A stretch of 64,000 nt of DNA from Escherichia phage EcWhh-1, in the sequence record MH791409.1; one strand, written 5' to 3'. The translations under genes were made by a program, and so were the position numbers. The notes under the pieces were generated by a model. The model saw nothing but the letters and a program-made list of their open reading frames with translations, ran no database searches and was not told the DNA's origin. Of the stretch, positions 8,246 to 63,802 are shown piece by piece. The stretch's first letter is position 1, and every line of letters starts with the position of its first letter.

Positions 8246-8995
8246 TTAACCTCTAATCAGTGAAAAAATTGAAGCATTCAGCGGAAGACCTTTTTTCAAC
8301 TTCAATTTGTCAATAAAAGAAAGGTGTTCTAAACGCTCCAGACCTTGAATAATTTTATCATACATATCGTAACGCGTTTCTGCTTCAGACAATTTAAACT
8401 TGACACGCCAGTCAGGTCCACCAATTAAAGATTTAAGACCTTTTTCCATAGTACCGATTGAAGCATTAGAACCGTGGATACGGGCCTTAACTGCGATAAC
8501 AGAAGGAGTCTTATCAGTAGCTCCTGATTTAATAAGGTCTTTAAGACGTTTTTCACGTTTTTTAAGACCTCTTTGGGTATCTTTTATATTTTTAACGATT
8601 TTACGGATTTTATAATAATTATCAGGGGTAACTTTAAAACTATTAGGCATTTTAGAACTACCTGAAATACGAACTGCTAAACGAGTCTGAGCACGTTTCA
8701 GTTCATCAAGGGACAAATCGGCACGTAAGCTGTTATACTTAACTTTAACTGGGATTACATTACCCTCAATATAGCCGATATCGTTGTTAAAACGTTCAAA
8801 TGAAATCTTATCATTAACTGAATTTTCATCAAAGTACTCGCCTGAATAAGCGCACACTTTTTGTTCGAGAAGTCTACGAACATATTTACTAGACAGATTG
8901 AAGTCCTTACCACGTTTATAAGCAGAAGCTTTGGTGTGTTTGCGGCGGTTGTAAACCTTTAACTCAAATTCATCGTTAGTTTTAATAGTAGGCAT
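8246..8995 (-). CDS. Srd-position protein, 249 aa (possible Srd homologue)
   Basis: The size and the slot between modA and dda match T4 srd. That assignment rests on synteny and size only. Central block CAYSGEYF...SFERFNNDIGYIEGNVIPV is noted. Confidence 0.4.
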   Translation of the reverse strand: MPTIKTNDEFELKVYNRRKHTKASAYKRGKDFNLSSKYVRRLLEQKVCAYSGEYFDENSVNDKISFERFNNDIGYIEGNVIPVKVKYNSLRADLSLDELKRAQTRLAVRISGSSKMPNSFKVTPDNYYKIRKIVKNIKDTQRGLKKREKRLKDLIKSGATDKTPSVIAVKARIHGSNASIGTMEKGLKSLIGGPDWRVKFKLSEAETRYDMYDKIIQGLERLEHLSFIDKLKLKKGLPLNASIFSLIRG

Positions 8996-9035
8996 GATAT
9001 TTTTCTCATCTTACGGACGATTAGTTGATAGGTCT

Positions 9036-9064
9036 ATAGTATCATGTTGCTTGATAAAGTAAAC
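9036..9064 (-). promoter_or_regulatory. early-type promoter
   Basis: GTTTAC (9064-9059), 17 nt, TACTAT (9041-9036), leader AGACCTATCAAC. Confidence 0.6.
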
Positions 9065-9068
9065 ACTT

Positions 9069-9096
9069 TTTTGCTTTAAATTTTCAACGGTATAAT
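9069..9096 (+). promoter_or_regulatory. consensus MotA-type middle promoter on the plus strand (antisense to modA)
   Basis: Plus strand: ttTTGCTTTA (9069-9078), 12 nt, TATAAT (9091-9096). It points into the 3' end of the minus-strand ART genes. No credible plus-strand ORF follows. Confidence 0.4.
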
Positions 9097-9133
9097 GAAT
9101 CAAGGACTTTGCCTTTCAATTAAACCGGGTGGT

Positions 9134-9748
9134 TCAGTAAGAAAGAACGGAAAGATTCCAAATGGTGTAATTATTCCATTTAGGATTTCTCTCAATAGAG
9201 TCTACGCGCAGCGTAGTTCCCGCAGGGAACATCATCTCATCTTCATCATTAATTAATTGTAAGTTTGCTACACGTGTAGATTCAGGAAATGCGCCTGGGA
9301 ACTCTTCAGGGGGCGCAGCACATAACATTTTAAAGATTTCTTCCTGATAATTGTACACAAATGGCGCATCATTAATACAAAAGATATTAAATGTGCCGTA
9401 GAAGTTATAAGATGCGAAATTCCTTGCTACGTTGAAGTCTTTAGAGAAGCTCATCACACGGTCGAATTCAATTACCGCACCCACACACATTGTGGACTCT
9501 AGATACTTCAGGGTCTTTTTAGATATACCGCGATAGAGCTTATCAGGCACTACAGAAGTCAGGTTCTTACGAATAATTTTGTTCAGAGTTTCCTGGATAG
9601 AATCAGGTTTATTTTCCATACACTGCCAGAGCGTGCTCTGTTCTAAATCAGAATACACCTCATCAATTTCTATCTGAGTATTCTCACGGAAATCATCGCA
9701 TTTGGCATTGTTGATAAATTCTGCTAATTTATGGCTTGGATATAACAT
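9134..9748 (-). CDS. modA: ModA/ModB-family ADP-ribosyltransferase
   Basis: 204 aa. R-S-E triad: LYRGIS, MSFSKD, NDEDEMMFPAG. The A versus B label comes from gene order only. Confidence 0.7.
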   Translation of the reverse strand: MLYPSHKLAEFINNAKCDDFRENTQIEIDEVYSDLEQSTLWQCMENKPDSIQETLNKIIRKNLTSVVPDKLYRGISKKTLKYLESTMCVGAVIEFDRVMSFSKDFNVARNFASYNFYGTFNIFCINDAPFVYNYQEEIFKMLCAAPPEEFPGAFPESTRVANLQLINDEDEMMFPAGTTLRVDSIERNPKWNNYTIWNLSVLSY

Positions 9749-9773: not shown

Positions 9774-9803
9774 ATAGTAACATAAGCATCCTTGCCTGTA
9801 AAC
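9774..9803 (-). promoter_or_regulatory. early-type promoter
   Basis: GTTTAC (9803-9798), 18 nt, TACTAT (9779-9774), GAGGAG SD. Confidence 0.55.
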
Positions 9804-10372
9804 TAAAAATCTAACATTTTTAAATGAATTGTTTTATACTCGATTTCGTATGGATCCCTTTTGACGGTTTCGATTGCAACAATCTCAAATCGCGATAGAC
9901 TAGAGACCATGAACTCACATTCAGTTTCAACCATATCATAGAGGTCGATACGAGATTCATCTATTTCAAGCTCATCCACATTCCCTGCAAGAACAAGGTC
10001 GATAGCATGATTGTAGTAGTCGAAAATGAACGGTGCATTCCTGAGACTTAAAATGGTTTTGGTTCCATACTCCCATGCCCCTGCGAACTGACGAGCCTGA
10101 GAGTATTGTGTACTAAAAGAAGTAACTCGACCAGGAGACCATTGACACCCTACTGAAAGGAGCTCTAATTGCTCAAGTTCTCTGGTGGTAATCCCACGAT
10201 ACAACTCTACTGGAACCGCTGAAGTAACATGCTTGCGAACCAGTTTGTCGAGGTCGTAATGGAAGTTAGGGTCTTTTTTGGCGTCCAGACATTTCTCTAA
10301 CAACGCTTGTTCAGATTTTGAAAATTTAGAATTGATTCGGTCTTGATAAAGACATTTTTGTTCGATGTTCAT
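9803..10372 (-). CDS. modB: ModA/ModB-family ADP-ribosyltransferase
   Basis: 189 aa. LYRGIT, TSFSTQ, ETECEFMV (R-S-E). Paralogue of the adjacent gene. The label comes from gene order only. Confidence 0.7.
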   Translation of the reverse strand: MNIEQKCLYQDRINSKFSKSEQALLEKCLDAKKDPNFHYDLDKLVRKHVTSAVPVELYRGITTRELEQLELLSVGCQWSPGRVTSFSTQYSQARQFAGAWEYGTKTILSLRNAPFIFDYYNHAIDLVLAGNVDELEIDESRIDLYDMVETECEFMVSSLSRFEIVAIETVKRDPYEIEYKTIHLKMLDF

Positions 10373-10396: not shown

Positions 10397-10425
10397 ATTA
10401 TAACATGAAGGGAGGGGGTGTAAAC
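10397..10425 (-). promoter_or_regulatory. early-type promoter
   Basis: GTTTAC (10425-10420), 17 nt, TATAAT (10402-10397) with TGt. Confidence 0.6.
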
Positions 10426-11688: not shown

Positions 11689-12023
11689 TAATCACACGAG
11701 CCGGACGATGAGTCACAGCTTCCTGAGTCAGAATAAGACGAATCGCCGGTCCAAGAACTAACGGCAGCCGCTACTACAATAGGAGTGGTATCAATATAAT
11801 TTTGCCTTTGCGCTCGCTCGTCTTTTAATTTTTCTAAACGGGCTTTTAATTCGTCGGCATTTAAGCTCGAAGCGTGAGACCCAACATTGCCTGCTTTTTC
11901 AGGCTGACGGATAACTTCTTCCATCATACCGTCGCCTACATAAACATATTCCTTCGGGCCTGAGATAGGAACTACACCTTCGCCAGGAGTGGTCTTGAAA
12001 AAATTCTTAAGCCACTGAATCAT
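11688..12023 (-). CDS. hypothetical protein, 111 aa, Ser/Cys-rich C-terminus
   Basis: Tail VSSWTGDSSYSDSGSCDSSSGSCD. 4-nt overlap with the upstream gene. Confidence 0.5.
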   Translation of the reverse strand: MIQWLKNFFKTTPGEGVVPISGPKEYVYVGDGMMEEVIRQPEKAGNVGSHASSLNADELKARLEKLKDERAQRQNYIDTTPIVVAAAVSSWTGDSSYSDSGSCDSSSGSCD

Positions 12024-12229
12024 AGGAAACCTCGTTTAAATTCAACTTTATCAATATCATCAGTCTCGTGACGGATTTCGGCGTTAAATTCGATAGAACC
12101 GTCTTCATGCATCATAAATGAATGGACAATAACTTCGGTATACCAAGGAGTATAGAAATACTTTTTCAATACGTGATTAGCGATAATTTCATCCAAAGTT
12201 TTATTTGGTTTAATCCAACGATTTAACAT
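12020..12229 (-). CDS. hypothetical protein, 69 aa
   Basis: Start moved to ATG 12229 (GAGGAG SD). The longer track ORF would run through its own promoter. Confidence 0.5.
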   Translation of the reverse strand: MLNRWIKPNKTLDEIIANHVLKKYFYTPWYTEVIVHSFMMHEDGSIEFNAEIRHETDDIDKVEFKRGFL

Positions 12230-45002: not shown

Positions 45003-45526
45003 TATGCGAGAACCGTCTTTAAACGCTCTTCAAATTTCTGAAGCAGAGCTTGGCGTTCAGCTCGTTGTGATTTGTACTGCTCGATACGACCTGAAGTGAG
45101 GGCGTACTGTTCGTTTACTGATTCCCGCATGAATTCAGGAATCTCTTTACACGCTTTGATTTCGTCAAACTTATCAATAACCGCTTGTTCCTCGGCAATC
45201 AGATTATCGAAATAAGCGATATCAGATTTAACATTTGCCAGGTCGGATTCAGTAGGCATTAAACGTTTGTTACGTTCAGCTTGATAAGCTTGATTGTTTT
45301 CACGGCTCCAGTAAAGAATACGTTTTTTGTTAGTGTTTTTATAGAGCTCTACAATACCAACTGAATCGATGATAGCAATCCAGTTCCAACGGCTTTTGTA
45401 AATCTCTCCTCCAGATACGGTAATCTCATTACCACAAGCAACGTCGTTAAAGAACTTGCTTTGTTTTTCAGATTTGAAATTACCATTATTAAAATTAATC
45501 AGTGAAAAAATATCTTTAGCGTTCAT
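45002..45526 (-). CDS. hypothetical protein, 174 aa, C-terminal coiled coil
   Basis: Own early promoter. Tail ...RAERQALLQKFEERLKTVLA. Confidence 0.6.
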   Translation of the reverse strand: MNAKDIFSLINFNNGNFKSEKQSKFFNDVACGNEITVSGGEIYKSRWNWIAIIDSVGIVELYKNTNKKRILYWSRENNQAYQAERNKRLMPTESDLANVKSDIAYFDNLIAEEQAVIDKFDEIKACKEIPEFMRESVNEQYALTSGRIEQYKSQRAERQALLQKFEERLKTVLA

Positions 45527-63452: not shown

Positions 63453-63802
63453 GATTTACATTCCTTAATAAAGGTTTCAAGGTCATTACGTTTAGTTTGT
63501 TTTACATACTCATTATAATTAGCCATCTCTAAAGCATATCTCTTACGGATGGGAGCATTCAAAGCATTTGTATGGCAAATATCATACACGAGAGGGATAA
63601 AATAGGCCACAACTGCTGGAGCGATTATCATATAGAAACCCATCTCAATAGGTGTGACTCCTTCGATTACAGCCATAACCACGGTCATTACCAGGCCAAT
63701 TAGGCCACCAAGCATGGCTGTAACAATCCCTAATAATAAATTGGCACCAATATCATATTCAGCCAATTGATAAACATGCGATGAAAGACTAGGCCGTTCC
63801 AT
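63449..63802 (-). CDS. membrane protein, 117 aa
   Basis: Start moved to ATG 63802 (AAAGAGG SD). Three TM segments. Confidence 0.5.
   Translation of the reverse strand: MERPSLSSHVYQLAEYDIGANLLLGIVTAMLGGLIGLVMTVVMAVIEGVTPIEMGFYMIIAPAVVAYFIPLVYDICHTNALNAPIRKRYALEMANYNEYVKQTKRNDLETFIKECKS

Follow-up and report, generated by a model that had tools for sequence, protein, structure and literature searches.

In bacteriophage lambda, unmodified host polymerase produces the OOP RNA, a short, terminated transcript that is antisense to the 3' end of cII. The middle promoters of bacteriophage T4 are the textbook example of sigma appropriation and appear in the accessible literature only as drivers of coding-strand genes or as sources of origin primers. 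Their consensus is (a/t)(a/t)(a/t)TGCTTtA-N11-13-TAtaAT, and phages of the Krischvirus group (RB49-type) have neither motA nor middle promoters (PMC1524935). At the T4 origins oriF(uvsY) and oriG(34), a middle promoter is combined with a downstream unwinding element and its transcripts serve as primers, and oriA may also use a MotA-dependent transcript (PMC3016281). Antisense transcripts do occur in T4 infections, as described for gene 32 (Belin et al., 1987, cited in PMC2988021 and PMC3014915) and in a dRNA-seq preprint that lists 150 phage transcription start sites, 22 of them antisense (10.1101/2024.04.04.588121). The accessible text of these sources, preprint coordinates aside, places no start at modA-srd, and the modA_modB primers of the preprint target sense RNA. 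The T4 GenBank and RefSeq records contain no promoter features. For RB69, a middle promoter termed 'Pm:12081' (plus strand, 12081-12122) was predicted by a hidden Markov model with a score of 7.9 and is one of four plus-strand entries among the 32 listed RB69 predictions (Nolan et al., 2006, Virol J 3:30, Additional file 4). In that supplementary list it stands as a coordinate with a low score, and the accessible text of the paper does not comment on its being antisense, conserved or placed beside modA and srd.

Here, a sequence module is described that belongs to this known promoter class and whose location and orientation are, apart from the RB69 list entry, uncharacterised in the accessible literature. 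It lies in a 64,000-nt stretch of DNA from Escherichia phage EcWhh-1 (MH791409.1), the whole of which is referred to as the window, in a region that shares 99.9% identity with Enterobacteria phage vB_EcoM_IME281 and 98.7% with JS98, two T4-like members of Dhakavirus. The JS98 record gives the gene order dda, dda.1, srd, modA, modB, with all genes on the minus strand, and of the ATG-initiated open reading frames of 100 aa or longer in the window, 69 are on the minus and 3 on the plus strand. A gap of 138 nt separates srd (8246-8995, minus strand) from modA (9134-9748, minus strand), which encodes a Mod-family ADP-ribosyltransferase (ART). The second ART gene, modB, is located at 9803-10372 on the minus strand; in T4, by contrast, modB and modA overlap by 4 nt.

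The module occupies the plus strand of the srd-modA gap. It is composed of a MotA box, tttTGCTTTA, at 9069-9078 (core TGCTTTA at 9072-9078, centred at about -30), a 12-nt spacer, aattttcaacgg, at 9079-9090 with a G at -14 (position 9089), a -10 hexamer, TATAAT, that can be read directly at 9091-9096, and a discriminator with initial transcribed region, GAATCAAGGA, at 9097-9106. The usual distance of 7 nt after the -10 places the predicted +1 at A9103. A -35 element at 17-nt spacing would read TTTTTG, which has two of six matches to TTGACA and is not a good sigma70 element, and the extended -10 region reads CGgTATAAT, i.e. it is without the full TGn. A sigma70 scan reported no plus-strand promoter at the module, and no late-promoter motif TATAAATA was found near it. 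With T4 middle promoters the module shares the box, the spacing between box and -10, a perfect -10, a poor -35, the frequent G at -14 and the presence of motA and asiA genes in the phage. Unlike them, it is located on an otherwise non-coding strand with no gene to serve, is directed towards the 3' end of an early gene and is known here from sequence alone.

The same gap contains the early promoter of srd on the minus strand (9036-9064), which consists of GTTTAC (9064-9059), N17 and TGa-TACTAT (hexamer at 9041-9036, TG at 9044-9043) and has a predicted +1 at about 9029. This promoter and the module are arranged back-to-back, with 7 nt from the srd -35 to the TGCTTTA core. In the opposite direction, an antisense transcript would reach modA as its first gene 31 nt past the predicted start, and modB only if it extended to about 700 nt. 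On its path it would meet an early-type minus-strand promoter 5' of modA (TTTACA-N17-TACTAT with TG, 9774-9802), and a further early-type promoter was found by scanning 5' of modB (TTTACA-N16-TATAAT with TG, 10397-10424, minus strand). In this phage, modB, modA and srd each have one T4-type early promoter, all with the TGn extension.

The module agrees at every position with the middle-promoter consensus published for T4. In the window, the strict pattern TGCTTYA-N11-13-TATAAT has one plus-strand and two minus-strand matches; the expectation computed from 300 dinucleotide shuffles is 0.017 per strand, and five of the shuffles contained at least one strict match. A pattern with the WWW prefix and TAWWWT is found once on the plus and three times on the minus strand (0.057 expected), and a loose pattern gave 8 matches versus 1.5 expected. 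Perfect matches on the coding strand lie 5' of rpbA/45 (31351) and of gene 47 (34677), which indicates that this phage uses the T4 consensus. The first-pass annotation of this DNA had described a perfect middle promoter on the plus strand, located in the gap past modA and directed antisense into modA and then modB. This description is borne out by the consensus match with its 12-nt spacer and its low expectation, by the position in the srd-modA gap and by the modA stop codon 31 nt from the predicted +1. The plus-strand reading frame MNQGLCLS... (9095-9256), which it named as the only one that the promoter could serve, cannot be served by it, since the ATG of this frame overlaps the -10 and lies upstream of the predicted start.

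Further matches in the window can be listed alongside. The loose pattern TGCTTYA-N11-13-TANNNT has four matches on the plus strand versus about 0.8 expected, and the three besides the module (40687, 43505 and 60934) have poor -10 hexamers. Candidates for middle promoters on the coding (minus) strand are located at 63539, 45004, 39588, 34677, 31351, 13189 and 11449. Several of these are identical or nearly identical to sites at equivalent places in the Gaprivervirus VR25, for example taaaCGCTTTAtaccaaggatggTATAATggt at 45004 in the window and 46572 in VR25.

To follow the module across T4-like phages, IMG/VR was scanned with an Srd alignment as the seed, the ModA protein alignment being too divergent for this use, and 46 loci were counted at which srd occurs together with a Mod-family ART gene. 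At 40 of these 46 loci the module is present in the same orientation, in 32 distinct sequences and about 15 lineages, which answers in the affirmative the question of the first-pass annotation whether the box is conserved in related phages. The genera are Dhaka-, Tequatro-, Mosig-, Gapriver-, Karam-, Jiaoda-, Winkler- and Marfavirus, joined by STML-198-, TG1- and PEi20-type phages and further lineages, and six annotated relatives of other genera carry the same module. In T4, aaaTGCTTTA-N12-TATAAT is located on the plus strand of the srd-modA gap at approximately 11,863-11,890, with a predicted start at 11,897 and 14 nt to the srd -35, versus 7 nt in the window. Pm:12081 of RB69 is the orthologous module in the srd-modA gap and has a 13-nt spacer ('1 bp ins').

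The TATAAT hexamer is invariant at all 40 module-bearing loci. Among 15 lineage representatives, the [T/C]GCTT core and G-6 are invariant and G-14 is nearly so; information content is close to its maximum at TGCTTT, G-14, TATAAT and G-6 and about 0 bits in the spacer and the flanks, and the spacer measures 12 or 13 nt, with no other length observed. Positions +2 to +10 are moderately conserved in the same set, and the block from -6 onwards reads G-R-W-T-Y..RG. Within genera, substitutions land in the spacer. The coding-strand candidates common to the window and VR25 follow the same pattern, with box and -10 kept and the spacer diverged. The footprint of conservation is that which an RNA polymerase with sigma70, AsiA and MotA would be predicted to read.

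The genes motA and asiA lie outside the 64-kb window and were found in IME281, the phage that shares 99.9% identity with the window in the region of the module. Its MotA contains PF09114 and PF09158 and is about 51% identical to T4 MotA, and its AsiA matches PF09010 with 79 bits. A MotA was matched in all complete module-bearing IMG/VR genomes except three Gaprivervirus contigs; the MotA of Gaprivervirus is only about 33% identical to that of T4 and was missed by the scan patterns. The Gaprivervirus module has a deviant box, aaCGCTTTT, and CGCTT boxes account for 6 of 14 coding-strand sites in Gaprivervirus and 4 of 12 in the Dhakavirus window. Co-variation of box and MotA in Gaprivervirus is only suggestive on these numbers.

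No module was found in the ART-srd gap of Krischvirus or in three MotA-encoding lineages, namely two of the PS2-type (Muldoonvirus; loci L055 and L056) and L064. In the PS2-type and in L064, the ART gene runs directly into the srd early promoter. Loss of modA was considered as the reason for these MotA-positive, module-negative lineages and does not give a clean separation, since the orthology of ModA and ModB blurs beyond the coliphage genera: the ART of PS2 is very divergent, and that of L064 is ModB-like, as in some module-bearing phages. Two other sequence elements were noted near srd. On a 169,947-bp contig (L066), a TATAATGGGTC block that resembles the -10 and discriminator of the module is located about 170 nt 5' of an srd-like gene, with no GCTT box and no detectable Mod ART gene upstream. 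On the antisense strand of L039, L040, L049, L053 and L061, which are Marfavirus-like and PEi20-like contigs, a conserved hairpin of the form GCTTCC-(TTCG/GAAG-type loop)-GGAAGC is followed by ATAAACTC, 216-435 nt 5' of srd and inside or beside the ART region. This ATAAACTC-tailed hairpin is a false positive of the motif regular expression.

The position of the module relative to the ART gene is narrowly defined. In all lineages but one (L034), the antisense -10 is found 3-46 nt past the stop codon of the last Mod-family ART gene; the 115 nt given by the reading-frame call for L034 are treated as an artefact of that call. Phages beyond the coliphage genera often have only one Mod-family ART, with about equal similarity to ModA and ModB, and since orthology is blurred in this way, 'the last Mod-family ART before srd' is the accurate wording. 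In Marfavirus, an extra small gene is inserted between the module and srd, and the module stays beside the ART gene. In the Klebsiella phage VAC36, a 63-aa gene (1227-1418) annotated as 'discriminator of mRNA degradation' is located between the ART gene and srd, and its ribosome-binding site abuts the MotA box of the module.

In most lineages, the module abuts or overlaps the predicted srd early promoter, in one of two arrangements. In type A (T4, the window and Mosig-, Gapriver- and PEi20-type phages), module and srd early promoter are divergent, with 7-17 nt from the box to the -35. In type B (Karamvirus, STML-198-type, CHI14, L041 and L036), the srd early promoter, GTTTAC-N18-TAGAAT, sits between the ART stop codon and the module and faces the latter. 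The two -10 hexamers are then about 13 nt apart and the predicted starts fall within 0-4 nt of each other, which would make the two open complexes mutually exclusive. At the Jiaoda-, TG1- and Marfavirus/L061-type loci, no clear early promoter was found beside the module. The adjacency to the srd early promoter, which the first-pass annotation did not mention, suggests a second or alternative role of the module in promoter competition. At L034, L037, L038, L041, L052 and L036, about 60-70 nt 5' of srd, the face-to-face arrangement amounts to an unusually tight head-on promoter pair, with about 13 nt between the -10 hexamers and predicted starts on one base pair or up to 4 nt apart.

The body of the predicted antisense RNA is devoid of comparable signals. 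No conserved open reading frame was found in it, no conserved 5' structure was found in its first 70 nt (z-scores of about 0), and Rfam gave no match on either strand. Intrinsic terminators downstream of the promoter were not above chance (1 found versus 1.7 expected), the sole candidate being a weak 5-bp hairpin at 9592-9607. The last 10-40 codons of modA show no excess of synonymous conservation (0.39-0.47 versus 0.467 overall). Because no selection is visible in the RNA body, any function would have to rest on complementarity, on transcription as such or on occupancy by polymerase. Within modA, at 9202-9230 (plus strand) and about 100 nt from the predicted start of the antisense RNA, lie two neighbouring perfect hairpins of 6 bp, each with a GCA loop: CTACGC-GCA-GCGTAG and GTTCCC-GCA-GGGAAC. 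The CTACGC hairpin persists in Gaprivervirus, Mosigvirus retains it by way of a double synonymous change (CTACAC..GTGTAG), and CHI14 lacks it. It may simply follow from the TLRVD codons, which are conserved, or it may be a structural element of the modA mRNA or of the antisense RNA.

The explanation that we favour, with moderate confidence, is that the module is a genuine, conserved, MotA/AsiA-dependent middle-type promoter behind the last Mod-family ART gene that points back into this gene. Sigma appropriation by MotA and AsiA would drive the promoter, and from the early-to-middle switch onwards polymerase would start near 9103 and produce an untranslated RNA antisense to modA and possibly to modB. 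Head-on transcription, sense-antisense pairing or both would lower the expression of the toxic ARTs, while polymerase occupying the module would compete with the srd early promoter. The first-pass annotation had proposed a middle-phase antisense shut-off of the toxic early ARTs, a reading that is partly supported. Damping of ART expression would probably be one consequence, and competition with the srd early promoter is likewise probable because the site abuts it (7 nt) or, in other genera, overlaps it. In favour of the promoter reading are also the independent selection of the RB69 element by a hidden Markov model, the absence of the module from Krischvirus, which has no motA, and the constant closeness to the ART stop codon, which persists in type B although the srd early promoter has moved to the other side of the module. 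Against it stand the three MotA-encoding lineages without the module and an RNA body in which no terminator above chance, conserved frame, 5' structure or synonymous-site signal was found. In T4 and several other lineages the -10 has a full TGn extension (T4: caTGgTATAAT), and such a promoter could fire without MotA. The arrangement resembles that of lambda OOP in that the promoter is located just past the stop codon of a dosage-sensitive regulatory gene and would fire back into its 3' end, giving a cis-antisense RNA to a gene that needs only brief expression. It differs from OOP in that the module has no detectable terminator or defined RNA end and its timing would follow MotA and AsiA. The modA-srd region is dispensable for growth of T4 in the laboratory. 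High toxicity is described for ModA, and how T4 shuts off its early promoters, a process that needs neither AsiA nor ModA, is stated as unknown (PMC2988021).

Several other explanations can be weighed against the same data. A chance match without function, which the first-pass annotation had offered as an alternative, has virtually no probability. Short A/T-rich motifs arise easily in an A+T-rich phage and three further loose matches are present on the plus strand of the window, but the strict motif is expected only 0.017 times per strand and about 15 lineages, T4 and RB69 among them, keep it against fully diverged flanks. Chance is thus excluded as the origin of the motif on comparative evidence, because its two parts have been kept across genera while spacer and flanks diverged. 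Conservation of both parts also bears on the idea of a MotA-independent, extended -10 sigma70 promoter that would transcribe the antisense strand constitutively, the GCTT block being kept for another reason. T4, Mosig- and STML-198-type phages, L041 and L036 do read TGnTATAAT, and G-14 is nearly invariant. However, [T/C]GCTT at the correct distance of 12-13 nt is as conserved as the -10, the version in the window (CGgTATAAT, 2/6 at the -35) lacks the full TGn, and Krischvirus, which has no motA, is also without such an element, all of which makes this idea distinctly unlikely. A sense-strand element that mimics a middle promoter, either an RNA motif in the ART 3' UTR or srd 5' UTR or a protein-binding DNA site, appears quite improbable. 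It would account for the conservation of the +1 to +10 block (sense ..TCCTTGAWWC) beyond strict promoter need; in type B this block forms the 5' end of the srd mRNA, and its UCCUU could pair with the srd Shine-Dalgarno sequence in the minimum-free-energy fold of one lineage. Yet it would require an unlikely coincidence for two blocks at fixed spacing each to represent one half of a bipartite consensus on a single strand. In addition, Rfam has no match on either strand, the type B 5' UTRs fold weakly (-5 to -8 kcal/mol) and not in the same way from one lineage to the next, and in type A the module is upstream of the srd early promoter and therefore outside the srd primary transcript.

Two further explanations retain the middle promoter and assign it another purpose. 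An origin-type promoter like those of oriF(uvsY) and oriG(34), at which a middle-mode transcript forms an R-loop that primes replication, would share with these origins a middle-mode promoter whose transcript has a role other than coding (PMC3016281). This is very improbable for the present locus, since none of the mapped T4 origins, A (near soc), C, E, F and G, is at modA-srd (PMC3016281), and no A+T-rich unwinding element follows the module: the A+T content of +1..+60 ranks at the 52nd percentile in the window and the 75th for the T4 locus, and that of +1..+100 at the 71st and 79th, respectively. The T4 modA-srd region is about 3 kb from soc. The remaining alternative is a switch acting by promoter competition alone, in which the transcript would be irrelevant and the polymerase with MotA and AsiA at the site would block the srd early promoter at the early-to-middle transition. 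The coincident predicted starts of type B, with open complexes that would exclude each other, and the 7-17 nt between box and -35 in the back-to-back arrangement of T4, Dhaka-, Mosig-, Gapriver- and PEi20-type phages fit this proposal, as does the unconstrained RNA body, which is consistent with a role at the DNA level. The srd early promoter in the window has a TGn extended -10, and promoters of this class resist inhibition by AsiA. The shut-off of early promoters also lacks an explanation (PMC2988021). Against competition alone stand the Marfavirus/L061-, Jiaoda- and TG1-type loci, at which no early promoter was found beside the module, as well as Marfavirus itself, in which the module stays with the ART gene and not with srd. 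The universal feature is the closeness to the ART stop codon, and competition as the sole function is therefore considered unlikely.

The favoured reading of an antisense middle-type promoter behind the ART gene can be extended, tentatively and at a low probability in our estimate, to a family-wide early-to-middle switch in which captured polymerase shuts the srd early promoter and silences the Mod ART gene or genes together. As MotA and AsiA build up, polymerase would be captured at the antisense promoter, the AsiA-resistant (TGn) srd early promoter would be shut by direct competition, and the Mod ART gene or genes would be silenced through head-on transcription or antisense RNA. If true, this switch would offer one concrete, testable account of how T4 early promoters are shut off, which is so far unexplained. 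More generally, if most T4-like genera keep an antisense middle-type promoter behind a toxic ART gene, regulated antisense transcription or competition between promoters would be indicated as part of the early-to-middle switch, the step at which early-promoter shut-off still lacks an explanation. Since the module is intergenic, it can be mutated without codon changes and is cheap to test, and the T4 dRNA-seq data could confirm a start near 11,897.

A short conserved element was also noted in the srd 5' UTR of the window. The 11-mer CGTCCGTAAGA (9009-9019, minus strand) lies directly 5' of the ribosome-binding site and is identical in Dhaka-, Gapriver-, Mosig- and Jiaodavirus and in T4, with one change in a T4-like contig. 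In Jiaodavirus it falls within the spacer of the antisense module. The 11-mer could fold into a small 4-bp hairpin with a CGUAA loop.
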